This document shows positions 2,066-43,992 of a stretch of DNA of 64,000 nucleotides, in pieces. Position 1 is the first letter of the stretch; the number at the start of each line of letters is the position of its first letter. Below the pieces are notes generated by a model that was not told the origin of the DNA, made no database searches, and worked only from the letters and a program-made list of their open reading frames with translations. The translations under genes and the position numbers were made by a program. Source of the stretch: Bacteroidales bacterium. Lineage in GTDB: Bacteria; Bacteroidota; Bacteroidia; Bacteroidales; UBA12077. The DNA lies in contig JBFXEQ010000005.1 in the NCBI GenBank assembly GCA_050179935.1, positions 39,738-103,737 of the forward strand, given 5' to 3'.

Positions 2066-2075
2066 CGAATTGAAG

Positions 2076-4397
2076 ATGAAAAAACTAGTTGTACTTATTA
2101 TATTATTTACCTTATTTTCAGGAATTGTTTTTGCCCAATCGTCGATTAAGGGAACTATTGTTGATGAAGATACTTTTACAGCAATCAGTTTTGCTAATAT
2201 CTCTATTAATAAAGGGAAAGGTACTGTAAGTGACGAAAATGGAAATTTCATACTGAAAAACCTAAAACCAGGCAATTATACACTACAAATTTCATTTGTA
2301 GGATATGAATCAGTATTTCAAAATATTAAGGTAAATGACAACGAGATTCTTGAGCTTCAGATTAAACTAAAACCTTCTAATTATACAGCCGAAGATGTTG
2401 TAATTACTGCCACAAAGACTGAAAATTATATTAAAGATATTCCAACCCGCATAAACCTCATTTCGCCAAGGCAGATTGAAGCATTACCGGCTCAAACAAC
2501 CGACGAGTTACTGGCATTTGTACCTGGTGTAAATATTAACCGATCGTTTGGTATTTACTCGCATTCAGCTGCTGTAACCATGCGCGGACTAAACGGACAG
2601 GAACAAGGTCGTGTGTTGGTTATGATTGATGGAATTTCTGTTAATAAGTCTGATGGCGGATCGGTAAACTGGAATTTGTTAAATAATGATCAGATTGATC
2701 GTATTGAGGTAGTTAAAGGCCCCGGATCTTCACTTTATGGAGGAAATGCCATGGGTGGAGCAATAAATATCATCACCAAAAAACCTACAGAAAATATTCA
2801 GGGCAAATTAAGTGTTGATTATGGTACTTATAACACTATGCGAAGTCAATTGTATTTATCAGGTCGTTTAAATCCAGCTATTGATAAAGGTTTTTACTGG
2901 AATCTTAGTAGCTTTTACCGACAAAGCGATGGATATATGACCGCCTCGGAGGCAGATCAACTGGCAAACAAGTATCTTGTTAAATCAGATCTGAAAGAAT
3001 GGGCTGCAACCGCTAAAGTTGGTTACGACTTTAATCAAAACAATGGGCTGGAACTAGACATGCTTTATTATGATGATGATAGAGCTACCGGCGAAAAAGT
3101 TTTTCAACCCGAAGGAAATAATCGAGAGCATGATACCTATCAGATTAGGGCAAAGTATAATGGTCAGAAAAACAAGTTGAACTGGACTATTAATCTATTC
3201 TATCTAAACGAAGATTATAAAAGGATAAGCGAATATTATAAAGACGATTATACATTTTACAAAGTACTATCTGAAAGGGTTGATTTGGGTGCATTATCTT
3301 CCTTATCGTACAATTTGAAAAACCAAATAATAACAGGTGGTGTTGATCTTAAGCAAGGCCGTGTTGATGCAAAAGATATTTATTATACCTCATCCGATAT
3401 AGTTTATAACCGCGGTAAAATGAATACGCTGGGATTATTTATTCAGGACGAAATAAAATTACTGAATAATAAACTAAAAGTTATTGCAGGATTAAGATTT
3501 GATTATGCCAACTTCTTTGATGGAGGATTTGAGATTGAGAATCCTACTGCGGAAACTACTTTTATGTTAGCTTATCATGATGACAATTTAAAAGAAGATA
3601 CATGGAATGCATTAAGTCCTAAATTGTCGGTACAGTATGAATTTACAAATGATTACCGCATTTACGCCAGCTTTTCCAAAGGATTTAGACCTGCTGTTTT
3701 AGATGATATGTGTCGCTCAGGAAGAATAAAAGGCGGATTTAAAGTTGCCGATCCAGGTTTGCAGCCGGAATACCTAAGTAATTTTGAAATTGGTGCTGAT
3801 GCCAAATTCTTTCAGCGATTAAGAACATCATTATCTGCTTTTTATTCTATGGGTGATGATTTTATGTATTATGTTAATACCGGCGATTCTATTGATCTTG
3901 GCTTCGGTTTGCGTCCTATAATTAAAGCCTCCAATATCTCCGAAGTTGAGATTTATGGACTCGAGTTTGAAGCAAATTATCTGCTTACCGATTATATTAT
4001 TTTTAATGCGAATTATGCCTATTCTCATTCACAAATAAAAGATTTTACACCTTTGAATGTAAGTGATCCGGTTGATTTAACAGGTAAATATTTATCTGAT
4101 GTGCCAAGCCACTCAGGTTCGTTTTCTGTAAACTGGCGTAATAAAATAGTTAATGCAGGTATTAATGCAAAATATACTGGAAGCAGATGGGTAAATGATT
4201 TAAACCAGATGGATGAAATTATTCTGGATGATAAATACCCATCATTTACAACGCTTGATTTGAAATTATCAAAATCATTTAAAATGATTTTTACAACGCT
4301 AAGTATCCAGAATATTCTTGATACCAAGTTTTACGATAGCAAAGGAGCAGTCTGCCCCGGCAGATTTATTACACTTGAATTAGGTCTAAAGTTTTAA
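2076..4397 (+). CDS. TonB-dependent outer-membrane receptor with an N-terminal CarboxypepD_reg-like domain
   Basis: Signal peptide, then 'GTIVDEDTFTAISFANISI...NLKPGNYTLQISFVGY' and a plug block 'RIEVVKGPGSSLYGGNAMGGAINIITKK'. It ends with a C-terminal aromatic, 'LELGLKF'. I prefer the ATG at 2076 over the TTG at 2070. Confidence 0.9.
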   Translation: MKKLVVLIILFTLFSGIVFAQSSIKGTIVDEDTFTAISFANISINKGKGTVSDENGNFILKNLKPGNYTLQISFVGYESVFQNIKVNDNEILELQIKLKPSNYTAEDVVITATKTENYIKDIPTRINLISPRQIEALPAQTTDELLAFVPGVNINRSFGIYSHSAAVTMRGLNGQEQGRVLVMIDGISVNKSDGGSVNWNLLNNDQIDRIEVVKGPGSSLYGGNAMGGAINIITKKPTENIQGKLSVDYGTYNTMRSQLYLSGRLNPAIDKGFYWNLSSFYRQSDGYMTASEADQLANKYLVKSDLKEWAATAKVGYDFNQNNGLELDMLYYDDDRATGEKVFQPEGNNREHDTYQIRAKYNGQKNKLNWTINLFYLNEDYKRISEYYKDDYTFYKVLSERVDLGALSSLSYNLKNQIITGGVDLKQGRVDAKDIYYTSSDIVYNRGKMNTLGLFIQDEIKLLNNKLKVIAGLRFDYANFFDGGFEIENPTAETTFMLAYHDDNLKEDTWNALSPKLSVQYEFTNDYRIYASFSKGFRPAVLDDMCRSGRIKGGFKVADPGLQPEYLSNFEIGADAKFFQRLRTSLSAFYSMGDDFMYYVNTGDSIDLGFGLRPIIKASNISEVEIYGLEFEANYLLTDYIIFNANYAYSHSQIKDFTPLNVSDPVDLTGKYLSDVPSHSGSFSVNWRNKIVNAGINAKYTGSRWVNDLNQMDEIILDDKYPSFTTLDLKLSKSFKMIFTTLSIQNILDTKFYDSKGAVCPGRFITLELGLKF

Positions 4398-4416: not shown

Positions 4417-5490
4417 ATGAAAAAACTATTTACAATTATTCTTGTAGGAATAAGCATTACAGCATGTAATGTAAAACAAACTGACAGTACAGCTGAGAAC
4501 AAATATCAGCGACAATTAACTGCCGACACAATTGATGCAACAAATGATTTTTATGATAACGCTGAAACTCATTTATTACCAGCACAACAACTTACCGTTG
4601 AAGGTGAAATAAGCAATCCAGGAATTGTAGATTTTACAAAGCTTCCATTGCGCAGTGTTATTGTTAAAGAAACACTTTTATCTGACAGTGGTGATAAATT
4701 TATTGGCGCTTATCGATATGATGGATATGCGCTTTACGACATTCTAAATCAGGTAAAACTGAATAAAAAAAACAAAGAAGAATTTAACCCGATTATTGAT
4801 TTATATGTTCAGATCGAGAATAACAAAGGCGAAAAAGCAACTATAAGCTGGGGCGAAATTTTTTACCCAAACCACTTACAGGAGATTATTATTGCCACTC
4901 AGGTTATGCGTATTGTGCCTTCAAAAACCAACGATCTTTGGCCTTTGCCCGAAGAAAGCAAGTTAGTTGTTTCGAGAGATCTGATAACTGAAAGAAATAT
5001 TTCATCACCAGTTAAAATAATTGTAAAATCATATCCAAAATCATTCGAAACAATTAAAGGATTAAAACCACTATTTTCCCCAACTATCGATATTTATAAC
5101 GAAAACGAGAAAATAGAAACTCTTACAGAAAATCCAAAAGAGTTGCAGATAGAAAAATTCAACACTATTTTTTATGGCCGTGGCAGAGGAATCCATTCTA
5201 CACAACCATTTACAGGTGTATTATTAAAAGATGTTTTGTTAAAAAATACTACATTTGATCAGAAAAATATCCGTGAAGGAATTTTCGTTGTTGTAGCAAA
5301 AGATGGATATAGAACTGTATTTACGTTTAGCGAAATAATGAATCGAAACGATCAAGCAGAGGTTCTTTTGGTTTGTCGCCCAGAAACAACAGATGATGGA
5401 ATTTTTAGATTATTTCCTGCATGCGATTTCTTTTCCGATAGAGCAGTAAAAGGAATAAACGCTATTTATTTTTCGGCTAACGAACAATAA
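4417..5490 (+). CDS. Lipoprotein with two tandem domains that resemble the molybdopterin-oxidoreductase (SUOX/YedY-type) fold
   Basis: Lipobox 'SITAC'. Segments such as 'FTGVLLKDVLLKNTTFD..REGIFVVVAKDGYRTVFTFSEIMNRNDQAEVLLVC' and 'YRYDGYALYDILNQVKL' recall the 'W.GV.L.dLL....v.f.a.DGY....' pattern of that fold. The fold assignment is tentative. Confidence 0.55.
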   Translation: MKKLFTIILVGISITACNVKQTDSTAENKYQRQLTADTIDATNDFYDNAETHLLPAQQLTVEGEISNPGIVDFTKLPLRSVIVKETLLSDSGDKFIGAYRYDGYALYDILNQVKLNKKNKEEFNPIIDLYVQIENNKGEKATISWGEIFYPNHLQEIIIATQVMRIVPSKTNDLWPLPEESKLVVSRDLITERNISSPVKIIVKSYPKSFETIKGLKPLFSPTIDIYNENEKIETLTENPKELQIEKFNTIFYGRGRGIHSTQPFTGVLLKDVLLKNTTFDQKNIREGIFVVVAKDGYRTVFTFSEIMNRNDQAEVLLVCRPETTDDGIFRLFPACDFFSDRAVKGINAIYFSANEQ

Positions 5491-5492
5491 AA

Positions 5493-6287
5493 ATGTATAA
5501 AAACAGGCTAAGTAGATTAGATATTATATTCTTAATTCTTGGTGGACTAATATTACTTTTTATTATTAGTCCACTACTTGGTATGTTTTTAGCCACAACA
5601 CCTGCACAATTTTTCGAAACATCAAAAGATCCCGAAGTACTTAATAGTATTTGGTTAACACTTTGGGTTTCGTTTGTCGCTACCATTATTTTTGCGTTTG
5701 GCGCAATTCCTCTATCCTACTTTCTAGCCCGAACCAATTTTCGGTTTAAAGGAATAGTAAATGGAATAGTTGATTTACCAGTGGTAATACCACATTCGGC
5801 TGCAGGTATTGCTATTTTGGGGTTTGTATCGCGCGATTCGGTGCTTGGTAAAATTGGTTCATCGATGGGGCTTAACTTTGTTGGTCATCCGGCTGGAATA
5901 GCAGTTGCCATGGCCTTTGTAAGTATTCCGTTTTTAATTAACGCTGCCCGCGATGGATTCGAAAATGTTCCGGAACGACTCGAAAAGACAGCTCTTAATT
6001 TGGGAGCGTCTCCTGTTCGTGTTTTTTTTACTATTTCGTTGCCTCTGGCCTGGAAAAATGTGTTATCGGGATTAATTATGATGTTCGCTCGTGGATTAAG
6101 CGAATTTGGTGCCGTAATAATCATTGCATATCATCCAATGATTACGCCTGTACTTATATTTGAACGTTTTGGTGCTTTTGGTTTAAAATATGCCCGACCC
6201 GTTTCGGTTGTATTTATTATCGTTTGCCTTGTGTTTTTTGTTCTGCTAAGAAGTCTTGCCAAAGAAAGGAAATCAAACGATGCTTAA
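5493..6287 (+). CDS. Tungstate/molybdate ABC transporter permease (WtpB/ModB family)
   Basis: Multi-TM protein with 'DLPVVIPHSAAGIAILGF', the EAA-type loop 'ERLEKTALNLGASPVRVFFTISLP' and the 'IIIAYHPMITPVLIFERF' block typical of WtpB-like permeases. Confidence 0.85.
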   Translation: MYKNRLSRLDIIFLILGGLILLFIISPLLGMFLATTPAQFFETSKDPEVLNSIWLTLWVSFVATIIFAFGAIPLSYFLARTNFRFKGIVNGIVDLPVVIPHSAAGIAILGFVSRDSVLGKIGSSMGLNFVGHPAGIAVAMAFVSIPFLINAARDGFENVPERLEKTALNLGASPVRVFFTISLPLAWKNVLSGLIMMFARGLSEFGAVIIIAYHPMITPVLIFERFGAFGLKYARPVSVVFIIVCLVFFVLLRSLAKERKSNDA

Positions 6288-7320
6288 ATTAAAAGATATT
6301 TCGATTAAACTGGGCGATTTTAAGCTAAAGAACATTGATCTTGAGTTGGAAAAAGAGGATTACTATGTTTTATTAGGCAAATCAGGAGTTGGAAAAACGG
6401 TTCTGCTCGAAATTATTGCCGGATTAATAAATCCAGAATCAGGGCAGGTATTTTTAAATGATATTGATATTACCCACGAAAAAATTCAGAAGAGAAAAGT
6501 AGGCATTGTATTTCAGGACTATTCTATTTTTCCGCATTTATCAGTAAAGCAAAACATAGCCTACCCGTTAAAAGGAAAAAACCTGAACATCCAGCAGGCT
6601 GAAAAGCTTATAAATGAATTTGCTGAGTTAACCAATATTTCTCATTTACTAAACCGATCAACCAAAAAATTATCAGGAGGCGAACTACAACGTGTAGCGT
6701 TGGCCCGAACATTAATTACCAAACCCGATTGTCTTTTATTGGATGAACCACTGGCATCGCTAGATATACAACTAAAAGGTGATTTACGAAATTTACTTCG
6801 CAAAATAAACCAGAACGGAACAACCATTTTGCATGTAACCCACGATTATGAAGAAGCAATTGCGTTGTCGAATAAAGTAGCCGTAATGCATGAAGGTGAG
6901 ATTATTCAAAAAGGATTAACAAAAGAAGTATTTCAAAAACCTACTAATGAATTTGTGGCCAATTTTACCGGAATAAAAAACTTTTTTTATGCTGAGTTTA
7001 CGCCAATTAATACGGCCAAAATAAACGACAACGTTGAAATCCATATAAGCAATCATGAGCAATTAAAAACTGGCAAAATAATAATTCGAGGCGAAGAAAT
7101 TATTGTTTCAGAAAACTGCTTACAGTCAAGTGCTACCAATAATTTTAAAGGTAAAATACTCCAGATTATCCCCTATTTTTCGAATTACGAATTAATTGTT
7201 GATATAGGGATTGAACTATCGGTGGTAATATCCGAAGAGTCTTTTTCGAAATTTAATTTTAAAAATCATTCAGAGGCATGGGTTTCATTTAAATCAACAG
7301 CTATAAAAATCATCCCTTAA
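6280..7320 (+). CDS. Tungstate/molybdate ABC transporter ATP-binding protein with a C-terminal TOBE-like domain (WtpC/ModC family)
   Basis: Walker A 'GKSGVGKT', signature 'LSGGELQRVALAR', Walker B 'LLLDEP', and a C-terminal OB/TOBE-like tail. I prefer the ATG at 6280, which overlaps the permease stop by 8 nt, over the TTG at 6256. Confidence 0.9.
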   Translation: MLKLKDISIKLGDFKLKNIDLELEKEDYYVLLGKSGVGKTVLLEIIAGLINPESGQVFLNDIDITHEKIQKRKVGIVFQDYSIFPHLSVKQNIAYPLKGKNLNIQQAEKLINEFAELTNISHLLNRSTKKLSGGELQRVALARTLITKPDCLLLDEPLASLDIQLKGDLRNLLRKINQNGTTILHVTHDYEEAIALSNKVAVMHEGEIIQKGLTKEVFQKPTNEFVANFTGIKNFFYAEFTPINTAKINDNVEIHISNHEQLKTGKIIIRGEEIIVSENCLQSSATNNFKGKILQIIPYFSNYELIVDIGIELSVVISEESFSKFNFKNHSEAWVSFKSTAIKIIP

Positions 7321-7382
7321 GTATTTTAGCAAACATTTTTAACCAATTTTTGTTTTATTCCATATAACTAAAGCATGCAATT

Positions 7383-7796
7383 ATGGAATTAACATCAATA
7401 AATTTTATAGCGGTGCTAGTTTCAGCTCTATCTGCGTTTGCAATTGGCTCTGTTTGGTACAGCCCGCTTATGTTCAGTAAAGCCTGGCAAAATGCGTTAG
7501 GCTTATCAGAAAAAGATATAAAAGAAGCTAATATGGTTTTAATTTTTGGAACCAGCTTTTTATTAATGTTCGTAATGGCAATTGGTTTATCGGTACTTTT
7601 AAACGCTTTAAATCCTAACGGAATTAACTGGTTAACAGGATTGAAACAAGGATTATTTATTGGTTTATTTTTTATTGCCACTTCGTATGGGGTAAACATT
7701 CTTTACCAGCGCAAATCGTTTAAATTATGGCTAATTGATTCTGGATATCAGGTTCTGTTACTCGGTATTATGGGTTTAATTATCGGTGCATGGTAA
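7383..7796 (+). CDS. DUF1761-family membrane protein
   Basis: 4-TM protein with an N-terminus 'INFIAVLVSALSAFAIGSVWYSPLMFSKAW' typical of DUF1761. Confidence 0.7.
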   Translation: MELTSINFIAVLVSALSAFAIGSVWYSPLMFSKAWQNALGLSEKDIKEANMVLIFGTSFLLMFVMAIGLSVLLNALNPNGINWLTGLKQGLFIGLFFIATSYGVNILYQRKSFKLWLIDSGYQVLLLGIMGLIIGAW

Positions 7797-7910
7797 TATT
7801 AAATTGCTGTTTTCTTTTTTAAATCTTTACATTTGTTAATTGTATTTCATTTATTTGCAAAGATTTTTTTGAATGAGGTTGGGACTTATAATTATTTGTT
7901 TATTTGATTA

Positions 7911-9086
7911 ATGATAAGATCATTCGCTTATAGGAGCATCATGTTTTTTGCAGGTATTTTATTTTTCATACTTGCCACATCCTTTACATTTTATAATCAT
8001 CCTAACGAAAATCATGATTTTAAAAGCGAAGAGACTCATCGCCCTGCATTTTTTCGTAATAAAATAATTACCGATGGGCCTTATGTTTTTTACGAAAATA
8101 ACGAGATTGTTGTACGATGGATTAAGGGAAAGCAACTAATAACTAAGAATCTATCAGGCGAAAACACAAAATACCTTCGTAAAAAATTTGGATTAAACAT
8201 TCCCATTGAAAACATTAAAAATCCCAATTCTAAACCCATTAATTATATTCAACAATACACAAACGTTGATAATGTAGTAATTATAAGTGATCCGCATGGC
8301 CAATTTGATTTGTTTACCAGTCTGCTAAAAGATCATCAGGTATTAAACGCAAATCTTGATTGGATTTTTGAAACCGGGCATTTAGTAATTTTAGGTGATG
8401 TATTCGATCGTGGATCAAAAGTAACCGAGCTATTATGGTTGATTTATCAATTAGAACAACAAGCTGAAAAAGCGGGCGGAAAAGTTCATTATATACTTGG
8501 TAATCACGAATTAATGGTTTTGAATAATGATTTACGGTATATTAATGAAAAATATATCCATTCGAGCCAAAAAATGAATATGGTTTATACCCAGCTTTTT
8601 GATGTAAACACCTTTTTTGGACAGTGGTTGCGATCAAAACCTGTAATGGTAAGTATTAACGACATGCTCTTTGTGCATGCCGGAATATCACCCGAGTTTT
8701 TATCAGCAGAACTTACTATTGAAAAAACAAATCAGATTTTTCACCAAAAAATAATTGGCAGGTCTTGGGATGTTATTTTAAATGATTCGATTAGCACCTT
8801 TTTGCTTAGCGAAAATGGTCCTTTATGGTATCGTGGTTATTTTAAAGAAATTATACCGGATAAAGAAATTGATAAAATTCTGAACTTTTTTAATTCAAAC
8901 CATTTAATTATTGGACATACCTCAATGCCCAATATTATGGCACTAAAAAGCGGAAAGATAATTATTGTCGACTCAGGGATTAAAGACGGAATTTATGGCG
9001 AAATCCTAATTTATAAAAAGAATGATTTATTCAGAGGCACTTCAAATGGAATGATTCTAAAACTAGAACCTCAGACTGGTTACTAA
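7911..9086 (+). CDS. Calcineurin-like metallophosphoesterase with an N-terminal membrane anchor
   Basis: Motifs 'ISDPHG', 'GDVFDRG' and 'GNHE'. Confidence 0.85.
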   Translation: MIRSFAYRSIMFFAGILFFILATSFTFYNHPNENHDFKSEETHRPAFFRNKIITDGPYVFYENNEIVVRWIKGKQLITKNLSGENTKYLRKKFGLNIPIENIKNPNSKPINYIQQYTNVDNVVIISDPHGQFDLFTSLLKDHQVLNANLDWIFETGHLVILGDVFDRGSKVTELLWLIYQLEQQAEKAGGKVHYILGNHELMVLNNDLRYINEKYIHSSQKMNMVYTQLFDVNTFFGQWLRSKPVMVSINDMLFVHAGISPEFLSAELTIEKTNQIFHQKIIGRSWDVILNDSISTFLLSENGPLWYRGYFKEIIPDKEIDKILNFFNSNHLIIGHTSMPNIMALKSGKIIIVDSGIKDGIYGEILIYKKNDLFRGTSNGMILKLEPQTGY

Positions 9087-34987: not shown

Positions 34988-35151
34988 TTTTATAATCCAA
35001 AAACCTTTGAGCTGGTGTTTTGAATTAAATTTTGGAAAATACGTTATGCAAATATAAACATATCGCTTTAATATAAAACAAGATTTTTATCATGTTATAG
35101 CAAAAATTTAAATCACTATTTTTGTACATTAATAACAAAAAAGGATAAGCT

Positions 35152-35433
35152 ATGTTTAAAACAAACGAATATTTCGATGGAAAAGTAAAATCAATAGCTT
35201 TCGAAACAAACGAAGGTCCAGCAACAGTTGGTGTTATGGCAAAGGGTGAGTATGTATTTGGAACATCAACAGTAGAATTTATGACTGTAACATCAGGTAA
35301 TATGACCATTCAGCAACCAGGAGAAACAGAATGGAAATCATACAAAGAGTTTGAAACATTTAAAGTTGCTAAAGATGTTAAATTCAAAGTTAAAGTAGAT
35401 AGCGATACTTCTTATCGTTGTCTTTACAAATAG
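35152..35433 (+). CDS. ppnP: Pyrimidine/purine nucleoside phosphorylase PpnP (YaiE, DUF1255)
   Basis: 'NEYFDGKVKSIAFE...ATVGVMAKGEYVFGT...SYRCLY' is collinear with E. coli PpnP. Confidence 0.9.
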   Translation: MFKTNEYFDGKVKSIAFETNEGPATVGVMAKGEYVFGTSTVEFMTVTSGNMTIQQPGETEWKSYKEFETFKVAKDVKFKVKVDSDTSYRCLYK

Positions 35434-35542: not shown

Positions 35543-35595
35543 AAATAAATAGAAATTTATTAAAATTTTAAAATAATCAAATTTTTAAATTAATG

Positions 35596-35620
35596 CTATG
35601 AAGTTTTTTTAACTTCATGG
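35596..35620 (+). terminator. Hairpin plus T-run (ppnP terminator or attenuator upstream of the ModE-like gene)
   Basis: 'CTATGAAGTT-ttttt-AACTTCATGG' followed by 'TATTTTTTTA'. Confidence 0.5.
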
Positions 35621-35635
35621 TATTTTTTTACTTTG

Positions 35636-35659
35636 CGATATGTTTTTTATATCATATTG
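35636..35659. promoter_or_regulatory. Candidate ModE-type operator, second copy
   Basis: 'CGATATGTTTTTTATATCATATTG'. The left arm and the preceding 'TTACTTTGC' match the site at 399-422, and the right arm is 'CATATTG'. It ends 17 nt upstream of the ATG of the ModE-like gene. Confidence 0.45.
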
Positions 35660-35675
35660 ATTAATAAAAATTCTT

Positions 35676-36053
35676 ATGGCAGGCTCAAAAGGTTCAAAAT
35701 ATTATGATATTTTTTTGAAATTCAAAGTATGGCTTGAAAATACAAAAGGACAGGGTATTTTAGGCGATGGTAAATTTGAATTACTCGAAATGATCGATAA
35801 ACATGGGTCATTAAGTGCTGCAGCTGATAAAATGGGAATAAGTTATCGCAAAGCTTGGGGTAATGTGAAGGAGGCCGAAGAAAAACTAGGATTTATACTG
35901 GTTGAGAAACATCGTGGAGGAGCGCAAGGTGGAAATTCAGTTTTAACACCCGAAGGTAAAAGACTAATTGAAGCTTACAAAGAGCTTTTAGTTGAATTTG
36001 ATGAATCCATTCATCAAATAACTAAAAAATTCTTCAATAAAATTAATTCGTAG
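35676..36053 (+). CDS. ModE N-terminal-domain-like winged-helix regulator (125 aa, no Mop/TOBE molybdate-binding domains)
   Basis: 'GSLSAAADKMGISYRKAWGNVKEAEEKLGFILVEKHRGGAQGGNSVLTPEGKRLIEAY' matches the ModE/LysR-type HTH_1 N-domain pattern. Confidence 0.8.
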   Translation: MAGSKGSKYYDIFLKFKVWLENTKGQGILGDGKFELLEMIDKHGSLSAAADKMGISYRKAWGNVKEAEEKLGFILVEKHRGGAQGGNSVLTPEGKRLIEAYKELLVEFDESIHQITKKFFNKINS

Positions 36054-36056
36054 ATT

Positions 36057-36797
36057 ATGAGATTCTTTGTGGCAATTGATGATACTGACAATTTAGAATC
36101 AAGAGGCACCGGTTTTAGGGCACGCGAAATGGGGAAACTAATTGTTGAACAAGGCGTTGGTGATGTTGAGTCGATTTCGAGACATCAATTGTATGTTCAT
36201 AAAAATATTCCATATACATCGCACAACAGCTCAGCTTGCTTAATTGTGAATACTGATAAATTTGATGCTTTACAAAAGCTATGCTCTGAATATCTTATTC
36301 GTGAAGCTGCCGAAGGTTCTGATGCAGGATTATGTATTGCCAGAGAAGATTTAATTAACGATGAAATTATAGATTGGGGAATCAGAGCTAAAATAGAGAT
36401 TCTTACAAAAGAAAACGCACATAAACTAGCCAATGAAAGAGGTATTTTTCTTGAAGGATATACAGGAACAAAAATTGGTGTTATTGGATCTCTTGCAGCT
36501 GTGGGATTAAGAAAAGCAGGAAACGACGGAAGAAATATCTGGGTAAAAGGAAAAGAATTACGCGAAATATGTGGCATTTTTTCCGGATCAGAATTAAAAA
36601 CGATTAGTCACATACAGGTTATTAAATCTGTTGATGGCAAATTAATAAATGATAATGAACGAATTGATGTTGGAAATTGGTTAAGGCCGGTTATCCAGAA
36701 TAAAGAAATAACTGTAATTGTAGAAAAAACTAAAAAAAATGAAAACCATGAATGGCAGCACGTATCAAAAGAGTATATCAAGAACATTTCAAACTAA
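36057..36797 (+). CDS. Hypothetical cytoplasmic protein with an N-terminus resembling the TiaS kinase-like (TCKD) domain
   Basis: The N-terminal 'MRFFVAIDDTDNLESRGTGF' resembles the TiaS start motif 'GIDDTDS..GMCTT'. I recognised no OB or Zn-ribbon part. It starts 3 nt after the ModE-like gene. Confidence 0.45.
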   Translation: MRFFVAIDDTDNLESRGTGFRAREMGKLIVEQGVGDVESISRHQLYVHKNIPYTSHNSSACLIVNTDKFDALQKLCSEYLIREAAEGSDAGLCIAREDLINDEIIDWGIRAKIEILTKENAHKLANERGIFLEGYTGTKIGVIGSLAAVGLRKAGNDGRNIWVKGKELREICGIFSGSELKTISHIQVIKSVDGKLINDNERIDVGNWLRPVIQNKEITVIVEKTKKNENHEWQHVSKEYIKNISN

Positions 36798-37317
36798 TAC
36801 ACTTACATTAGTTCTTGAGATATTATTATTGTTAGCATTAGGAATCGGTGCAATTGTATTGCGTTCAAACCTCCGTATTCCATTAAACATACCCGGCCGT
36901 CATGGATTGGAGTTTATGGCAATTATTATGATTGGACGCAGGATTTCTAAGTTGCCATTTGCAACCATAATTATGATGCTGGGAGCATCAAGCTTTATGT
37001 TTTTCCCATTTATAGGAATCAAAGATCCATTTTTGCCAATAATTTATGTTGTTATGGGAGTTGTAGTTGATACTTTGTATTTATTATTCCGAAATCCCGC
37101 TAAAAGACTGGCAATTCTTACTCTAATTGGAGGTTTAGCCTATATGGTAATACCAATTAGTCGTTTAACCATTTATCTTTTTACAGGCGTTCTTGAATCT
37201 TCATTTATTAAGTGGGGATTTGTTGTCCCTGTTTTATCTCACTTTGTATTCGGAATTGCCGGTGCATTATTAGGAGCCGGATTCGTTTATTCAATCAATA
37301 GAATTATAAAAAAATAA
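36739..37317 (+). CDS. Small polytopic inner-membrane protein (about 5-6 TM), unknown family
   Basis: Hydrophobic segments occur throughout. It overlaps the upstream gene by 50-59 nt (ATG at 36739 or 36748), which suggests translational coupling. Confidence 0.6.
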   Translation: MKTMNGSTYQKSISRTFQTNTLTLVLEILLLLALGIGAIVLRSNLRIPLNIPGRHGLEFMAIIMIGRRISKLPFATIIMMLGASSFMFFPFIGIKDPFLPIIYVVMGVVVDTLYLLFRNPAKRLAILTLIGGLAYMVIPISRLTIYLFTGVLESSFIKWGFVVPVLSHFVFGIAGALLGAGFVYSINRIIKK

Positions 37318-37330
37318 AAAATCGCTTTTT

Positions 37331-38275
37331 ATGAAGATTATTAAACCTATGGTTGGCGATATGAAAAAAAGAACCTGTCGGTACTTTTATAACTCACTAT
37401 TTGTATTGTTACTTATACTTCTTACAATTAATTATTCATGTAACGAAGAAGACAAAAACGATTTTTCGGATCCGGAAATAAATATCATAAATCTACCTGG
37501 GCATGTTTTCTCTGACTCGACAATTTCTGCAGGACAAAAATTTATTGTAGGTGTAGAAGCTACATCAAACGGGCATAATAAACTAACCAATTTTATTGCA
37601 AAAGTAAACGGTGAAAGATATTTGGATCTGGGAATTTTTTCAGAAACCTTTAATAAAGAAATTGAAATTACCAAAGGACTTAGCGAAACGGATGTTTGGG
37701 AATTTATAATTCGAGATATTGAAGGAAATTGGGCAAGCAAGAGCATAACAATTACTCAAGGTGATTCAACTGGATTTGGCGAAATTGATACGTACTTAAA
37801 TGTTTATTTGGGAGCTCAAAATAGCACTCTTTACGGAAGTTTCTTTTCTTTAGGTACTGGTACTGTTTATAATTTGCAAGATGCATTTACAAATTCAGCC
37901 CTTATTGATTTAGTATATTATTATGATGATTTTGATAAGCTAGAGAAATGTATCATGGCATCGCCAGGAGCAAATATTGGTGAAACAGCCTTTCCGGGTG
38001 AATTTGCCATAGCTAATTGGGAAACAATTAATACAACCCGATACAGCAAAGAAAAGCTCTCCCTTTCAATTGAAGAATTTGACAATGCTTTAAATGATAG
38101 CATTTTAATAGCAAACACATTTGCTTTCGAAACCGGTGGGCGTAAAGCAAAACTCCTACAAACTGGCGATATGTTTGCATTTGTAAGAGATAACAAAACA
38201 GGAATATTTAAAGTGGTGAATACATTGGAATCAAATAGCGGTTATATTGTTGTTGATATAAAAATTCAAAAATAA
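37331..38275 (+). CDS. Lipoprotein, uncharacterised family (paralog 3 of 3)
   Basis: Lipobox 'TINYSC'. The true start may be the ATG at 37361, 'MKKRTC..'. It shares the mid-block 'ASPGANI' and the C-terminal 'RKAKLLQTGDMFAFVRDNKTGIFKVVNTLESNSGYIVVDIKIQK' with ORFs 454-1047 and 1163-2065. Confidence 0.7.
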   Translation: MKIIKPMVGDMKKRTCRYFYNSLFVLLLILLTINYSCNEEDKNDFSDPEINIINLPGHVFSDSTISAGQKFIVGVEATSNGHNKLTNFIAKVNGERYLDLGIFSETFNKEIEITKGLSETDVWEFIIRDIEGNWASKSITITQGDSTGFGEIDTYLNVYLGAQNSTLYGSFFSLGTGTVYNLQDAFTNSALIDLVYYYDDFDKLEKCIMASPGANIGETAFPGEFAIANWETINTTRYSKEKLSLSIEEFDNALNDSILIANTFAFETGGRKAKLLQTGDMFAFVRDNKTGIFKVVNTLESNSGYIVVDIKIQK

Positions 38276-38280
38276 GTTGC

Positions 38281-40569
38281 ATGATGATTTCAAAAAAAAT
38301 AATTCAAATAGTACTCGTTCTTTTTCTATTCCCCATTTCGGTTTTTGCTCAAATCGAATTATCGGGAAAAATTATTGACTCAGTTACGAATGAATCATTA
38401 TCAGGGGCCAATATTGTTTTGCTAGAAATACAGCACGGTGTTTCCAGTAATAAAAATGGTGAGTTTACGGTTCTAAATATTAACCCCGGAACTTACACTA
38501 TACTTGTTTCATTTGTAGGTTATTACAATCAAGAACTAACACTTTTGGTTGATGAAAACAATAATCATGTTATAATTAAATTGAATCCATCTGTTATTGA
38601 AATGGAAAAGGTAATAATTACAGCAACTTTAACAGAACGAAAGATTGAAGATTTACCTGGTCAGAATGAAATTATCGAAAAGAACACGATAGAAGGTTAT
38701 CCTGTTTCCAATACTGATGATCTTCTTCAATCCATTTCAAATATTAATGTTAACCGCAGCTGGGGGATTTTTTCCAAAAATTCATCAGTAACTATGCGTG
38801 GTTTGGAATCGGCTCAAGGAACGTTGATTCTTTATAATGGTGTTCCCCTGAACAAAACTGCTGGAGGTTCAATTAACTGGCATATGATTTCTCCTGACCG
38901 GATTGAACGAATTGAAATAATAAAGGGTCCAAGCTCTGCTCTATATGGAAATAATGCTATGGGCGGAGTTATTAATATCATCACAAAAAAAACAAACGAA
39001 GAGATTTCGGGAGATATAAGAGCATTTGGTGGTACTTATGGCACTTATGGCGGAAAACTGAATCTTGAAGGAAATCAAAAGCTATTTGGGAAAAAATTTT
39101 ATTGGGGTGTTAATGGATTTTATCGACAAGGTGATGGGTATATTATAGAGCCGTTAAATCTTCGAGATTCAACAGATGTTAAGGTTTACCTTAAAGAAAA
39201 CCGCTTAGGAGCGATGGTTGGCTATGAGTTTAATCAAAACAATAAACTTGAAGTTGAATATAGCTATTATGACGATAAACGAGGCGACGGAAAACAGGTT
39301 TATTTCGACGATGGTGGTTATGTTAAGTACACAACAAATTTTGTGCGCGCAAAATACAACACACAGATTGCTTCTTTTAAGATTGAAGCAAACGCATATT
39401 TTCAGAACGAAGATTTTTACCAGTTTACCGAATCTATAAATGATGATGGCAATTATAAGCTCTCGTACAAAGATCAAATTTCAAGAGATTACGGGATTTG
39501 GACAAATGCTACAAAAAATTTTGGCGAACACAACTGGCTTACATTTGGAGTTGATTTTAAACAGGGATTTATGGATGCATCAGATGTTTACCTAACATCA
39601 ACAGATACTGTTTTGCGCGATGGCAAAATTCAATCGTATGCTGCTTTTATTCAAGATGAACATCGATTTTTTAATGAAAAACTAAAGATTATTGCCGGAT
39701 TGCGATTTGATTATTCACGTTTCTATAATGCTTCGATTTATGTTGGCGATCCATCAGTAAATACAGGATTTGAAGAATCCTTTTCAGAAAATTATAAAAA
39801 CTCCGATTGGACTGCATTAAGTCCAAAGCTTGCTATTCAATATGACATTTCAAAATCAATTAAGTCTTATATTTCAGCATCATCAGGCTTTATGCCGGCT
39901 ATTATAGACGATATGATTTCGTCTCGAAAAATAAATAAAGGGTTTAAGCAAGCTAACCCTGAATTGCAGCCTCAAACTTTATACAATTACGAAATAGGGT
40001 TTAACACAAAACCATTTAAAAAGGCACAATTAAAAACAGCCGCCTATTATTCGAAAGGTAAAGATTTTCAATATTTTGTCGGTACCGGCAATTATATTGA
40101 CGGACAGCCTGAACTGATGCGAGAAAACATTGCTGAAGTTGAAATTATTGGTGCAGAAATATCATTCCAATACGATTTTACGAATCAATTAATTTTTAAA
40201 ACAAATTACACTTATAATAGCTCAATTATTAAAGATTTTGATTTAACCAATTATACAGGCGATGATTTATCAGGCAAACAGCTTATAGATATTCCCTGGC
40301 ATCAGGCTTTTGCAGGGTTCTTTTGGAAAAACAGGTTCATCAATACAACTCTTACAGCTAATTATATTGGTAAAGAATATTCAGACGAACAAAATATTCT
40401 TATTATTGATGATTATGTAACAATTGATCTAAACCTATCAAAGACTATTTATCGTAATTACTCCTTATCACTGGATATTCAGAATCTATTCGACAAGGTG
40501 TATATTGATAAAAAAGACAGACTATCACCTGGAAGATTTATTGTTTTTGAATTTGGGTATAAGTTTTGA
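38281..40569 (+). CDS. TonB-dependent outer-membrane receptor with a CarboxypepD_reg-like N-domain (paralog of 2076-4397)
   Basis: 'GKIIDSVTNESLSGANI..NINPGTYTILVSFVGY', 'RIEIIKGPSSALYGNNAMGGVINIITKK', 'LKIIAGLRFDY' and a C-terminal 'FEFGYKF'. It is collinear with the first TBDR. Confidence 0.9.
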   Translation: MMISKKIIQIVLVLFLFPISVFAQIELSGKIIDSVTNESLSGANIVLLEIQHGVSSNKNGEFTVLNINPGTYTILVSFVGYYNQELTLLVDENNNHVIIKLNPSVIEMEKVIITATLTERKIEDLPGQNEIIEKNTIEGYPVSNTDDLLQSISNINVNRSWGIFSKNSSVTMRGLESAQGTLILYNGVPLNKTAGGSINWHMISPDRIERIEIIKGPSSALYGNNAMGGVINIITKKTNEEISGDIRAFGGTYGTYGGKLNLEGNQKLFGKKFYWGVNGFYRQGDGYIIEPLNLRDSTDVKVYLKENRLGAMVGYEFNQNNKLEVEYSYYDDKRGDGKQVYFDDGGYVKYTTNFVRAKYNTQIASFKIEANAYFQNEDFYQFTESINDDGNYKLSYKDQISRDYGIWTNATKNFGEHNWLTFGVDFKQGFMDASDVYLTSTDTVLRDGKIQSYAAFIQDEHRFFNEKLKIIAGLRFDYSRFYNASIYVGDPSVNTGFEESFSENYKNSDWTALSPKLAIQYDISKSIKSYISASSGFMPAIIDDMISSRKINKGFKQANPELQPQTLYNYEIGFNTKPFKKAQLKTAAYYSKGKDFQYFVGTGNYIDGQPELMRENIAEVEIIGAEISFQYDFTNQLIFKTNYTYNSSIIKDFDLTNYTGDDLSGKQLIDIPWHQAFAGFFWKNRFINTTLTANYIGKEYSDEQNILIIDDYVTIDLNLSKTIYRNYSLSLDIQNLFDKVYIDKKDRLSPGRFIVFEFGYKF

Positions 40570-40632: not shown

Positions 40633-41430
40633 ATGAATCACTCTGATACTTTTTCTTTATATTCACGATGGTTTTCAGCATATATAAACCATTTCCTGGT
40701 ATTACATCCCGATTTGGCAGAAAATATCCAGATTAAAGCCGATCACAGCAGAAAAGTACACCACGAAATCCTTGGATTAGCAAAAAACATAAAACTTACC
40801 GAAGGAGATACATTTATAGCCGAGACCATTGGACTTTTTCATGATATCGGCCGGTTTAAACAATATGTAAAATACCAGACTTTTTCCGATTCAAAATCGC
40901 AAAACCATGCTGAGTTAGGCGTTGATGTTCTTAAAGAAAATAATGTTTTAAAAAATCTTACCCCAGAACAGCAAGAAATTATTTATAAATCAATTCTTAA
41001 TCATAGCAGAGCCGAGATTGCTCCTGATACTAATGAAAAAGTGATTTCCTTTTCAAAAATGATTCGCGATGCAGACAAACTCGATATCTGGCGACTAATT
41101 ACCGAATACTATATGGTAAAAGAGCAAAATGAAAACAAAACACTTGAGCTCGAATTGCCGGATAACGAAGAAATTTCGGACGAAGTTCTGCAGGCAATTT
41201 TAAACCACCAATTAATATTAAAAGAATCGTTGAAAACCCTCAATGATTTTAAACTGTTGCAGATAGCTTGGATTTTTGATCTGAATTTCGATTATTCAAT
41301 CCAACGGCTTTTTGAAAAAAAATATCTCGAAAAAATAATTAGAACTTTGCCACAGAACAACAAGGTAAATAAGGTTAAAACCTTGGTAGATTCTTATTTT
41401 AGGGAGCATATTAAAACATTTGCCCAATAA
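40633..41430 (+). CDS. HD-domain phosphohydrolase-like protein
   Basis: 'H...GLFHDIGR' HD motif and a downstream 'DADKLD'. Confidence 0.75.
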   Translation: MNHSDTFSLYSRWFSAYINHFLVLHPDLAENIQIKADHSRKVHHEILGLAKNIKLTEGDTFIAETIGLFHDIGRFKQYVKYQTFSDSKSQNHAELGVDVLKENNVLKNLTPEQQEIIYKSILNHSRAEIAPDTNEKVISFSKMIRDADKLDIWRLITEYYMVKEQNENKTLELELPDNEEISDEVLQAILNHQLILKESLKTLNDFKLLQIAWIFDLNFDYSIQRLFEKKYLEKIIRTLPQNNKVNKVKTLVDSYFREHIKTFAQ

Positions 41431-41478: not shown

Positions 41479-42651
41479 ATGATAACCATAGAAAAAGCAT
41501 ATCAAACAGTTATAGGAAAATCATACACACTGGAAACAGAGAAGATTGATTTTATTGATTCTGTAGGGAGAATACTTGCTGAAGATGTAACTTCGGATAT
41601 TGAAATGCCTCCATTTGATAAATCATCGATGGATGGATATGCTTGCCGGCGAGCAGATGTTGATAATACACTCGAAATTATAGAAATTATTCCAGCAGGA
41701 AAAACACCAACCAAAAGAATTGGTCCAAATCAGTGTGCAAAAATAATGACCGGAGCGCCCGTTCCAGAAGGAGCCGATTTTATTGCAATGGTCGAATACG
41801 CCGAAGAGATTGATGATAAATATGTAAAAATCAACAAAATAACTCAGCGCAATAATATAAGCTATCGTGCCGAAGATGTTAAGATTGACCAATTGGTATT
41901 GCAGAAAGGTATAAAAATTAAACCTCAGCATATTGCCGTTTTTGCTTCGGTTGGATATACCAATGTTTTGGTAACAAAACAACCTAGAGTTGCAATTATT
42001 TCTACTGGCGATGAGTTGGTTGAGCCGCATAAAAAACCGGGTATTTCGCAGATCAGAAACAGTAATGGTTATCAACTAATTACACAAGTAAAATCGTGTG
42101 GAGCTATTGCAAATTATATTGGAATTGCAGATGATACTCCTGAAGATACTTTCAATAAAGTAAGTAAAGCATTATCTGAGAATGATTTGGTGCTTTTAAC
42201 CGGTGGTGTCTCTATGGGTTCGTTCGATTTTGTTCCCGAAGTATTGAAAAAAGCAGGAATAGAAATTTTGTTCGATTCTATAGCAGTAACACCTGGGAAA
42301 CCAACAACATTTGGTGTTACTGGTAAAAAATTCTGTTTTGGATTACCCGGAAACCCAGTTTCATCATTCATACAATTTGAATTATTAGTAAAACCATTAA
42401 TTTATAAGTTGATGGGATTTGATTTTCAACCATTGGATATACAAATGCCTATGGGTATTGAATTTAAACGCAAAAAGACAGATCGTAAAGCATATATCCC
42501 CGTGTTTATTAAAGATGGAGAAGTTTTTCCTGTTGAATATCATGGATCAGCGCATATACATGCTTTATCGTTTGCACACGTAATAATTGCTTTTCCAATC
42601 GGAGTTGATACGTTATTAAAAGGAGAAATCGTTCATGTACGACAAATATAA
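41479..42651 (+). CDS. moeA: Molybdopterin molybdenumtransferase MoeA
   Basis: 'PPFDKSSMDGYA', 'IMTGAPVPEGAD', 'TGDEL' and 'LTGGVSMGSFDF' motifs. Confidence 0.92.
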   Translation: MITIEKAYQTVIGKSYTLETEKIDFIDSVGRILAEDVTSDIEMPPFDKSSMDGYACRRADVDNTLEIIEIIPAGKTPTKRIGPNQCAKIMTGAPVPEGADFIAMVEYAEEIDDKYVKINKITQRNNISYRAEDVKIDQLVLQKGIKIKPQHIAVFASVGYTNVLVTKQPRVAIISTGDELVEPHKKPGISQIRNSNGYQLITQVKSCGAIANYIGIADDTPEDTFNKVSKALSENDLVLLTGGVSMGSFDFVPEVLKKAGIEILFDSIAVTPGKPTTFGVTGKKFCFGLPGNPVSSFIQFELLVKPLIYKLMGFDFQPLDIQMPMGIEFKRKKTDRKAYIPVFIKDGEVFPVEYHGSAHIHALSFAHVIIAFPIGVDTLLKGEIVHVRQI

Positions 42652-43435
42652 TCGCAAAATAAATTATCTGAGAATTTCAGTAACAGATCGCTGTAACTTG
42701 CGATGTGTATATTGCATGCCCGAAGGTGGTGTTACATTACTCAAACACGAAGAAATTCTGAATTTTGAAGAAATCGTACAAGTTACCAAAACTGCTGTTC
42801 GCAAAGGAGTTAATAAAATACGAATTACAGGTGGTGAGCCATTAGTACGAAAAGGGATTATTGAACTGATCAGCATGATTGGAAAAATTGATGGAATAGA
42901 TGACTATTCAATGACTACAAATGGTATTTTATTGGAACAGTTTGCCGAGGAACTTAAAAAAGCAGGATTGCACAGAGTAAATATAAGTCTCGACTCAATG
43001 GATCCTGAACGATACAGACAAATAACCCGGGGTGGTGATATTACTAAGGTTTTTGCAGGAATTGAAGCGGCAAAAAAAGTAGGGCTGGAACCTATAAAAA
43101 TAAATTGTGTAATAAAAAAGAGCGAAGAGGAGCCTGATGCTGTTGAGGTTGCTAAATTTTGCAAAGAAAATGGACTGTTTGTTCGTTTTATTACGGAAAT
43201 GGATCTTGAAAAAGGAGAGTTCTCAATAGTGCATGGTGGGTCAGGTGGCGATTGTGTACATTGTAATCGCATTCGTTTAACAGCCAATGGAATGATAAAA
43301 CCATGTTTGTTTAGTGATATTCAATATAGCGTAAGAGAACTTGGTGCTGATAAAGCAATAGATATGGCTATTGCGAATAAGCCAAAAAATGGACATACTA
43401 ATGTTACCGGGAAGTTTTATAATATAGGTGGATAG
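42635..43435 (+). CDS. moaA: GTP 3',8-cyclase MoaA (compact form, radical SAM)
   Basis: 'LRISVTDRCNLRCVYCMPE' (CxxxCxxC), 'ITGGEPL', a second cluster 'CVHCNRIRLTANGMIKPCLF' and a C-terminal Gly-Gly. It overlaps moeA by 17 nt. Confidence 0.9.
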   Translation: MYDKYNRKINYLRISVTDRCNLRCVYCMPEGGVTLLKHEEILNFEEIVQVTKTAVRKGVNKIRITGGEPLVRKGIIELISMIGKIDGIDDYSMTTNGILLEQFAEELKKAGLHRVNISLDSMDPERYRQITRGGDITKVFAGIEAAKKVGLEPIKINCVIKKSEEEPDAVEVAKFCKENGLFVRFITEMDLEKGEFSIVHGGSGGDCVHCNRIRLTANGMIKPCLFSDIQYSVRELGADKAIDMAIANKPKNGHTNVTGKFYNIGG

Positions 43436-43530: not shown

Positions 43531-43992
43531 ATGAGCAAATTAAGTCATGTTGATGATAAAGGAAAGGCCAATATGGTTGATGTTGGTAAGAAACCCGATC
43601 AGAGCCGGGTGGCAATAGCCACTGGACACATTACTTTGGCTAAGGAAACTGTTAAACTTATAAAAGAGAACTCCATGAAAAAAGGTGATGTGCTTACCAT
43701 TGCCGAAATTGCAGGAATACAGGGTGGTAAGCGAACCAGCGAATTAATTCCATTGTGTCATCCATTGCAAATTACTAAAATGGATGTGAAAGCCAAGATT
43801 GATAAAACAGGTGTTAGAGTTAATTCTGAAGCACGATGTGTTGGAAAAACCGGTATCGAAATGGAAGCTTTGACTGCTGTTTCTGTTGCTTTGCTTACCG
43901 TTTACGACATGTGCAAAGCAGTTGATAAATCAATGCGTATAGATGAAATTACACTTGTCGAAAAAACAAAAACAGATATAATAGAACGCTGA
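43531..43992 (+). CDS. moaC: Cyclic pyranopterin monophosphate synthase MoaC
   Basis: 'LSHVDDKGKANMVDV', 'KGDVL..A.IAGI..GKRTSELIPLCHPL' and 'GIEMEALTAVSVALLTVYDMCKA'. Confidence 0.93.
   Translation: MSKLSHVDDKGKANMVDVGKKPDQSRVAIATGHITLAKETVKLIKENSMKKGDVLTIAEIAGIQGGKRTSELIPLCHPLQITKMDVKAKIDKTGVRVNSEARCVGKTGIEMEALTAVSVALLTVYDMCKAVDKSMRIDEITLVEKTKTDIIER

Follow-up and report, generated by a model that had tools for sequence, protein, structure and literature searches.

Why would a bacterium encode a relative of an archaeal tRNA-modifying enzyme in the middle of an operon for molybdenum and tungsten (Mo/W)? The question is raised by a 64-kb stretch of DNA from a Bacteroidales bacterium (the window; AT-rich, ~33% G+C), in which nine + strand genes lie head to tail. 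They encode a regulator that corresponds to the N-terminal part of ModE (ModE-N), a TiaS-like protein (TLP), a membrane protein (MP), a lipoprotein, a TonB-dependent receptor (TBDR), an HD-domain protein, and MoeA, MoaA and MoaC, which belong to molybdenum cofactor (Moco) synthesis. The gaps along this string, from ModE-N to MoaC, are 3, -59, 13, 5, 63, 48, -17 and 95 nt. The nearest relatives of the operon proteins, at 92-93% identity, are from metagenome-assembled genomes (MAGs) of Bacteroidales or other Bacteroidota. A preliminary description of the window had pointed out the resemblance to TiaS, the position of TLP directly behind a ModE-like gene and the setting in an operon for Mo/W uptake and Moco; the 3 nt gap, our gene calls and the family matches agree with this placement. 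Here we describe TLP as a true but distant homologue of TiaS that belongs to a conserved gene module. We consider the chances about even that TLP and MP belong to an uptake route regulated by Mo/W, with MP acting in the inner membrane and TLP in the cytoplasm, where it would process the cargo.

A stand-alone bacterial relative of TiaS

TLP (36057-36797, + strand; 246 aa, ATG start) begins with MRFFVAIDDTDNLESRGTGF. Used as a single sequence, it matches the Pfam model TiaS_TCKD (PF22641) with an E-value of 0.0068 (16.8 bits, cut-off 27), and positions 1-152 of the 422 positions of the NCBIfam TiaS model NF040849 with an E-value of 1e-4 (21 bits, cut-off 600). The best curated-model match is methanogenesis marker 11 (TIGR03280; E 1e-9), in which positions 134-284 of 292 align with TLP residues 2-153; this match is partial and, at 38 bits, stays below the cut-off of 255.8. 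A TLP family profile of 28 sequences recovers the TiaS chains of the PDB at an E-value of 7e-7, residues 1-151 being aligned to 1-151. Moreover, Foldseek searches with the AlphaFold2 (AF2) model of TLP (pLDDT 91.3) return TiaS structures alone at E-values of 1e-9 to 2e-6 (probability 1.0), and the next matches have E-values above 3e-3. The TiaS structures superimpose with an rmsd of 2.5 Å over ~155 residues, where most of the Foldseek alignments end. None of the domains that hold the tRNA in TiaS (ferredoxin-like, OB-fold and Zn-ribbon) aligns to TLP in NCBIfam or Foldseek comparisons; only the TCKD part does. The predicted likeness to the N-terminal part of TiaS is therefore real, and so is the suggestion that TLP is too short for the tRNA-binding OB and Zn-ribbon parts. 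The N-terminal two thirds of TLP are a TCKD domain. The protein is not a TiaS: all the tRNA-binding domains are missing, and no curated cut-off is reached.

The C-terminal ~90 residues of TLP form a small beta-rich domain, for which a Pfam search of nine diverse members matched no family. The same search lends no sequence support to a TOBE/Mop-like identity of this domain, which we had considered. Among the invariant positions of TLP are D8 D9 T10 D11 N12, R16 G17 T18 G19, R42 H43 Q44, T54 S55 N57 S58 S59, G87 S88 D89 and D157 G158 R159. The DDTD and GTG motifs are invariant in the 28 TLP sequences and are found family-wide, as are RHQL, YTSHNSxxC, GxDxGxC, GxGxIGALAxxGL and GxDG. Judged from its homology, TLP is expected to bind ATP.

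TiaS, the archaeal tRNA(Ile2) 2-agmatinylcytidine synthetase (PDB 3amt/3amu, 4rvz, 5xob, 3u02), shares with TLP the TCKD fold, the I-D-D-T-D motif and, in the ungapped HMMER alignment, Thr18, the residue that is autophosphorylated in TiaS, an enzyme that cleaves ATP to AMP; the two sequences can, however, also be aligned with an offset of two residues. TLP differs from it in being bacterial, in lying in transporter and Mo/W operons, in having its own C-terminal domain, and in the TLP-specific invariant motifs RHQL, YTSHNSxxC, GxDxGxC and GNDGR. C61 and C93 are conserved across the TLP family and absent from TiaS in the profile-PDB alignment. Methanogenesis marker 11, a protein of unknown function, has a TCKD-like domain in common with TLP but carries an extra N-terminal half. 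To our knowledge it is confined to methanogens.

A search for the TLP family gave 3099 proteins, and a clustering at 50% identity (E <= 1e-3) gave 1064 clusters; one scan placed the family in at least 547 genomes at the species level. With few exceptions, its members stand alone at a length of ~245 aa. The NCBI name 'ABC transporter substrate-binding protein', carried by a few members (P0110, P0280 and P0465), appears to be a propagated misnomer, because TLP has neither a signal peptide nor the fold of a substrate-binding protein (SBP). A Peripla_BP_2 gene sits just 5' of TLP in one architecture.

The overlapping membrane protein and the conserved module

MP (36739-37317, + strand) is a protein of 192 aa, or of 189 aa if translation starts with MNG at 36748, as in almost all MP homologues. 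Its reading frame is +1 to that of TLP, and it overlaps the 3' end of the TLP gene (36739-36797, + strand) by 59 nt, or by 50 nt from the second start, as had been noted before. The same holds for the ~5-6 transmembrane segments and the lack of a recognised family: the AF2 model (pLDDT 86.7) consists of six long helices, and MP matches no Pfam or NCBIfam family. One distant MP homologue has a sub-threshold match to PF09819 (E 2.7e-4). The top Foldseek matches of the model are S-components of energy-coupling factor (ECF) transporters, namely 5edl, ThiT, RibU, PanT and FolT, with TM scores of 0.5-0.6 and probabilities of 0.96-1.0. A direct sequence search with MP finds 86 relatives only. A Hidden Markov Model built from MPs of Bacteroidota also reaches small membrane proteins of other phyla (E 3e-18 to 7e-5), and these homologues adjoin genes for CbiQ/EcfT and for a fused double ECF-type ATPase (EcfAA'), which independently backs the S-component likeness. 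MP thus appears, by its best fold matches, to be an inner-membrane protein with an ECF S-component-like fold. Its most conserved motif, R46-x-P-L-x-x-P-G-(R/H)-H-G, lies between helices 1 and 2. The distribution of charges suggests, by the positive-inside rule, that both termini are inside and that the R46 motif is in an outer loop. S-components, which have ~160-230 aa, are like MP in size (~190 aa) and in having six helices; unlike MP, none is known to have a counterpart of TLP, an obligate TCKD-type partner.

To define the neighbourhood, we analysed 80 Bacteroidota-type loci from different genomes and counted genes within 10 kb of TLP. Genes were called by a longest-ORF (open reading frame) heuristic and by tblastn at >= 50% query coverage. 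The loci are the best matches per scan, mutually related and mostly MAG contigs, so that the counts do not represent independent events. MP is present in 77 loci, the lipoprotein in 72, the TBDR in 65, a protein with a type IX secretion system (T9SS) sorting domain in 36 and ModE-N in 30; WtpA and MoeA are each found in 8, MoaA in 7 and MoaC in 6. The conserved core is TLP-MP-lipoprotein-TBDR and is therefore larger than the TLP-MP pair. The overlap of TLP and MP measures 47-80 nt, with a constant relative frame, in 64/73 Bacteroidota-type loci, and it recurs in a MAG of the Gammaproteobacteria (53 nt), in Brocadiia (61 nt) and in Planctomycetota (80 nt).

The window lipoprotein (37331 or 37361 to 38275, + strand) is probably surface-exposed. 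Its lipobox ...NYSC is followed by the acidic stretch NEEDKND, and the other lipoproteins of the module likewise have an acidic run after the lipobox Cys, which in Bacteroidota is a signal for surface exposure. The protein is assigned to no family, and neither the single sequence nor a 23-sequence profile finds a match in the PDB; a homologue has a faint match to HmuY, and the HmuY and DUF4466 matches are below threshold. The TBDR (38281-40569, + strand; 762 aa) shows CarboxypepD_reg, Plug and barrel domain matches. Its nearest NCBIfam model is a heme/hemoglobin receptor subfamily, whose cut-off it does not reach.

Several neighbours of the core were recorded as well. The protein with a C-terminal T9SS sorting domain (282 aa; e.g. 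L073 14297-15145) is encoded 3' of the TBDR, and it may serve the system as a binding protein, either secreted or at the surface. The window operon does not include it; there, a gene for an HD/HDIG-domain protein (40633-41430, + strand; 265 aa) occupies its position. This phosphohydrolase gene, which stands between those for the TBDR and MoeA, is confined to the window's clade (7 loci). Neighbouring genes for EF-P, LpxD, PntAB, a LytTR regulator and a glyoxalase are housekeeping or clade-specific and lie outside the module.

Links to molybdenum and tungsten

The genes that follow the module in the window encode MoeA (41479-42651), assigned by its operon position and by homology to the Pfam-annotated MoeA of related loci, a MoaA-like radical-SAM protein (42635-43435) and MoaC (43531-43992), all on the + strand. 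In some other Bacteroidota loci the link is to tungstate uptake. In loci of the L001 type an SBP gene overlaps the start of TLP by 1 nt, and the L001 protein passes the WtpA equivalog cut-offs (376.9 vs 355 bits and 325.6 vs 242.75 bits); in L038, L041 and L081 the row of module genes ends with wtpB and wtpC.

A paralogous Mo/W uptake locus opens the window, likewise on the + strand. It starts with the 3' part of wtpA (3-371), truncated by the window edge, and continues with two lipoprotein paralogues (454-1047, 197 aa, and 1163-2065, 300 aa), a TBDR of 775 aa (2070-4397) with 41% identity to that of the module, a lipoprotein termed x357 (4417-5490), a WtpB-like permease (5493-6287) and a WtpC-like ATPase (6256-7320). 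The last two are assigned by their best NCBIfam matches, which are below the equivalog cut-offs (278 bits vs 340 and 344.6 vs 440, respectively). This order places the receptor-lipoprotein family inside a tungstate ABC-transporter operon. The x357 lipoprotein is assigned to no family; it recurs between TBDR and wtpB in 11 loci, has a faint match to the Moco-binding domain Oxidored_molyb (E 0.011, below threshold) and found no relatives in a PDB search.

In Bacteroidota, the module is also marked by a ModE-type palindrome, CG(A/T)TATG-N8-CATA(T/A)CG, the form of which recalls published ModE boxes and which we take to be a putative operator. It lies just 5' of ModE-N or TLP and again just 3' of MP, before the lipoprotein and TBDR genes. 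At >= 16 bits it is found at the first position in 27/77 loci, at the second in 43/75 and at either in 50/80, against a background of 0.014 per kb elsewhere in 1.08 Mb, and it is also present at loci that have no nearby ModE-N or Mo/W gene. For the position weight matrix, 17 sites near operon starts served as training data. The window site at 35636 was one of them; no post-MP site was used, and none of the other window sites (399, 35042 and 37357). The four window sites are the only ones of >= 14 bits in the entire window, compared with a mean of 0.17 in block shuffles, and they belong to the two Mo/W loci and to ppnP. The site 35636-35659 (CGATATG-N8-CATATTG, 22.0 bits) ends 17 nt 5' of the ModE-N start, and the site 399-422 (24.5 bits) lies between wtpA and the lipoprotein/TBDR genes. 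The post-MP site, strong in most related loci, is weak in the window (37357-37380, 14.4 bits), where it spans the codon at 37361 with which the lipoprotein probably starts. The same matrix finds no site in 718 kb of non-Bacteroidota loci; thus, the operator is lineage-specific. The exact palindrome GATAT-N7-ATATC, which has one site in the window and is not conserved elsewhere, was replaced by TATG-N10-CATA and the weight matrix.

The strongest site of the window (35042-35065, 27.3 bits) lies 5' of a small ppnP-like gene (35152-35433, + strand; 93 aa), which encodes a cupin annotated as belonging to a nucleoside phosphorylase family. This gene is found 5' of the TLP module in 16/80 loci. A terminator-like hairpin (35592-35624) follows ppnP and precedes the palindrome at 35636.

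ModE-N itself (35676-36053, + strand; 125 aa) matches TIGR00637 with an E-value of 3e-23 and 81.7 bits (cut-off 98.5). It consists of the helix-turn-helix (HTH) part alone, and a search with family models for a Mop/TOBE domain gave no match. Rfam searches at the gathering threshold, covering the window and eight loci with long gaps 5' of TLP, revealed no Moco, cobalamin or other riboswitch. In a sigma-70 promoter scan, which does not cover Bacteroidota promoters, sites were no commoner than in shuffles.

Links of the same kind are seen outside the Bacteroidota. In Brocadiia (L166), a Moco operon with mobA-like, moeA, moaA, moaC, MOSC/MoCF and fdhD genes runs into TLP and the overlapping MP, and in Planctomycetota (L168) a Moco operon of the same kind accompanies TLP. 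In L169, the genes for TLP and MP are followed by two Oxidored_molyb-like genes (7367-8990) and by those for SBP_bac_11, a permease and an ATPase/TOBE protein. The two Oxidored_molyb matches of L169 are weak; the genes stand between MP and modABC-type genes, a place equivalent to that of x357. In the gammaproteobacterial MAG (L074, 5154-13393), TLP and MP lie directly 3' of a three-gene operon that resembles those of formate dehydrogenase (FDH), with a convergent TBDR gene. In Thermodesulfobacteriota (L165), TBDR, EcfAA', EcfT, TLP and MP genes adjoin a Mo-storage homologue and a ModB-type permease. Finally, a Firmicute-like subgroup (43 loci) has TLP in EcfAA'-EcfT-MP-TLP operons or, without MP, in FecCD-ATPase-Peripla_BP_2-TLP operons. 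TupA-like, MoeA, MoaE, MoaC or FDH genes occur in 13/43 of these loci, and six have homologues of a Mo storage protein (2ogx_B, E 2e-71). The survey of neighbourhoods thus links TLP homologues to MP and, in several phyla, to Mo/W genes or a ModE-type operator.

Two kinds of neighbours in these lineages can be described further. The storage-protein genes near TLP belong to the amino-acid-kinase family and are close homologues of the subunit beta of the Azotobacter molybdenum storage protein (L134 6809-7642, - strand; L165 887-1744, - strand; and four more loci). A 68-aa protein with four Cys residues, SCYNCRYRRWT..SF.C, is encoded 3' of TLP in 29/43 Firmicute-like loci; its gene is present in L104 (2488-2694) and 34 other loci. 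In some proteins (P0290, P0296, P0301, P0318) this 4-Cys module is fused to the C-terminus of TLP, and P0318 (826 aa) contains an FAD-dependent oxidoreductase in addition.

A proposed role for TLP in metal uptake

The route that we propose would start at the outer membrane, where the TBDR and the surface lipoprotein would take up Mo/W species, a step for which many relatives also encode the T9SS-secreted protein. MP would then carry the cargo over the inner membrane, and TLP would modify it in the cytoplasm at the expense of ATP, likely by O-phosphorylation or another form of activation. By analogy with TiaS, this activation or trapping would render uptake irreversible, and the metal would be passed via MoeA to cofactor synthesis. 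ModE-N would control the operon through the palindrome. We infer which way the cargo is moved and what it is (an oxyanion or a complex), and likewise that TLP uses ATP and that phosphorylation or trapping is its chemistry. TiaS is known to phosphorylate an oxygen, the carbonyl oxygen of a heterocycle, and thereby to turn it into a leaving group.

TLP is cytoplasmic and retains a catalytic-looking signature of enzymes that use ATP. That its target is the cargo and not MP is suggested by the company it keeps: it is found with a solitary MP, with EcfAA'-EcfT-MP and, in the absence of MP, with FecCD-ATPase-Peripla_BP_2. We therefore prefer an enzyme that processes an imported Mo/W species to an energiser of MP, and of the functions suggested in the preliminary description that of an activating enzyme fits best, that of an energising partner less well. 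Since wtpABC is also present, MP and Wtp may serve different cargoes; that of MP could be the other of the two oxyanions, a complex or a molecule derived from the cofactor. Cobalamin or heme, to which the HmuR-like and BtuC-like best matches would point, is not our leading idea, because the links seen in regulation and metabolism all lead to Mo/W.

A number of observations weigh against the proposed route. Genomes with the module also carry the canonical wtpABC, often in the same operon, so that MP is not required as the sole inner-membrane route for tungstate. A Mo/W gene lies within 10 kb in 37/80 Bacteroidota loci, about half being without one, 30/80 have no operator at the chosen threshold, and one g15 locus (L170) shows no Mo/W link. 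No S-component Pfam model matches any of 30 MP members, and the Foldseek E-values of MP are not significant (best 0.044). The correspondence of Thr18 in TLP and TiaS is broken if the alignment is shifted by two residues, such that both SRG tripeptides are aligned. Moreover, we know of no TCKD enzyme that phosphorylates an inorganic oxyanion.

The presence of wtpABC, which already serves the oxyanion, makes a second cargo plausible and leads to another reading: TBDR and MP might import a molecule derived from the Mo/W cofactor (for example a dephosphorylated pyranopterin or molybdopterin, or the intact cofactor) in place of the free oxyanion, and TLP might be a salvage kinase that re-phosphorylates and traps it, much as vitamin kinases are paired with S-components or Pnu carriers. 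Classically, S-components, TBDRs and FecCD/Peripla_BP_2 systems import cofactors and chelates such as B12, thiamine and heme, not small anions, and the Foldseek matches of MP are vitamin S-components. MoeA is encoded in the same operon, the lipoprotein with the faint Oxidored_molyb match recurs in the operons, and the phosphorylation of a heterocycle oxygen is the chemistry of TiaS. However, these Oxidored_molyb matches remain below threshold, the binding proteins encoded next to the module, WtpA and TupA, bind oxyanions, and the genes for de novo pterin synthesis, MoaA and MoaC, are in the same operon in the window, in Brocadiia and in Planctomycetota. We also know of no bacterial salvage of Moco or pterin. 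Overall, we regard cofactor salvage as unlikely.

Alternatively, TLP could replace the ECF module in Bacteroidota, where it would dock onto MP from the cytoplasmic side and drive or gate transport by ATP hydrolysis or autophosphorylation. EcfT, EcfA and FecCD genes are absent within 10 kb of TLP in all 80 Bacteroidota loci, and EcfT and EcfA are also absent from the window. The pairing of TLP and MP is obligate, and their overlap of 47-80 nt suggests coupled synthesis. Furthermore, the autophosphorylation of TiaS makes a phospho-switch conceivable. The idea has difficulty in explaining why TLP is still encoded among or after complete EcfAA'-EcfT modules, and why it accompanies FecCD-type importers that lack MP in 12-13 of the 43 Firmicute-like loci. 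Moreover, a solitary S-component can function without an ECF module, as does BtuM, which works with the TonB-dependent receptor BtuB (PMC6072759); the MP of Bacteroidota is likewise solitary and paired with a TBDR. There is, in our judgement, little probability that TLP is an energiser or gate.

TLP might instead bind Mo/W, for instance through C61/C93, and either sense the ligand on behalf of ModE-N or inhibit the transporter in trans. This would suit a regulator that has the HTH part of ModE without its molybdate-binding Mop domains and whose stop codon, in most loci that have both genes, is 0-11 nt from the TLP start or overlaps it; the two family-wide conserved cysteines would suit it too. 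ModE-N, however, is adjacent in 30/80 Bacteroidota loci and in 3/43 loci of the Firmicute-like subgroup, whereas a transporter is almost always adjacent, and the invariant, catalytic-type DDTD and GTG motifs argue for an enzyme. A function as sensor or co-regulator consequently appears improbable to us. Finally, an RNA- or protein-modifying TiaS-like enzyme in an incidental operon position, as the tRNA modification by the sole characterised homologue and the resemblance of the 4-Cys module of one subgroup (68-aa gene or C-terminal fusion) to a zinc ribbon might suggest, is very hard to reconcile with the unaligned OB fold and ferredoxin-like domain, the NCBIfam TiaS score far below cut-off, and the importer and Mo/W linkage in Bacteroidota, Planctomycetota, Thermodesulfobacteriota, Gammaproteobacteria and Firmicute-like lineages.

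A bolder version of the proposed uptake route, to which we give only a slim chance, would make TLP a 'metalate kinase'. It would split ATP into AMP and Pi and transfer the gamma-phosphate to an oxygen of imported tungstate or molybdate. MoeA would then be supplied with an activated metal intermediate bound to protein or thiolate, which might sit on C61/C93 or, in other phyla, on the 4-Cys protein. On this reading, S-component-type transport of Mo/W would be seen for the first time in MP and its ECF relatives, and no outer-membrane receptors of Bacteroidota dedicated to Mo/W would have been known before the TBDR-lipoprotein pairs.

Mo/W uptake is thought to use three type I ABC systems, Mod, Wtp and Tup, and in addition MolBC. 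The regulons of ModABC, WtpABC, TupABC and MolBC-A are similar in style to that of the module, with a ModE-type HTH protein and a palindrome; the module even shares operons with WtpA/B/C or adjoins TupA, and the FecCD-type variant of the TLP loci parallels the type II importer MolBC-A. TBDR, surface lipoproteins, S-component-like carrier and TLP are additions of the module, and its regulator has no Mop domain. The logic recalls that of the Pnu carriers and their kinases (PnuC-NadR, PnuT-thiamine pyrophosphokinase), in which facilitated diffusion is coupled to metabolic trapping: a small carrier is combined with a cytoplasmic ATP-dependent enzyme, 3' of a TBDR in Bacteroidota. Neither component is homologous to those of the Pnu systems, and trapping by TLP would be the corresponding step. 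Tub, which stores tungsten, is a TOBE protein and unrelated to TLP, and a published study of Geotalea deals with CbiMNQO alone.

In the literature we found no account of bacterial TiaS-like proteins, of ECF-type Mo/W transport or of TonB-dependent Mo/W uptake in Bacteroidota, and nothing on methanogenesis marker protein 11; nor did we find a family model or structure that describes the TLP family or an S-component-type Mo/W carrier. TBDR, S-component-like carrier, TCKD fold and ModE-type regulon are each of a known kind. What is new is their combination and the role of a TCKD enzyme in it. We know the TCKD fold only from one archaeal tRNA enzyme.

How metal is handed over to cofactor synthesis, and how tungsten is chosen over molybdenum, is poorly understood, and the module touches both questions. 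It is widespread, and it adds to Mo/W uptake a TonB-dependent outer-membrane step, an S-component-like or FecCD-type inner step, an enzyme of the TiaS fold and a ModE-type operator. If our proposal is correct, a function could be given to a large family of 'hypothetical proteins', Mo/W would join the substrates of ECF-type transporters and of the TBDR-lipoprotein pairs of Bacteroidota, and the TCKD fold would have been recruited for bacterial metal or cofactor metabolism.

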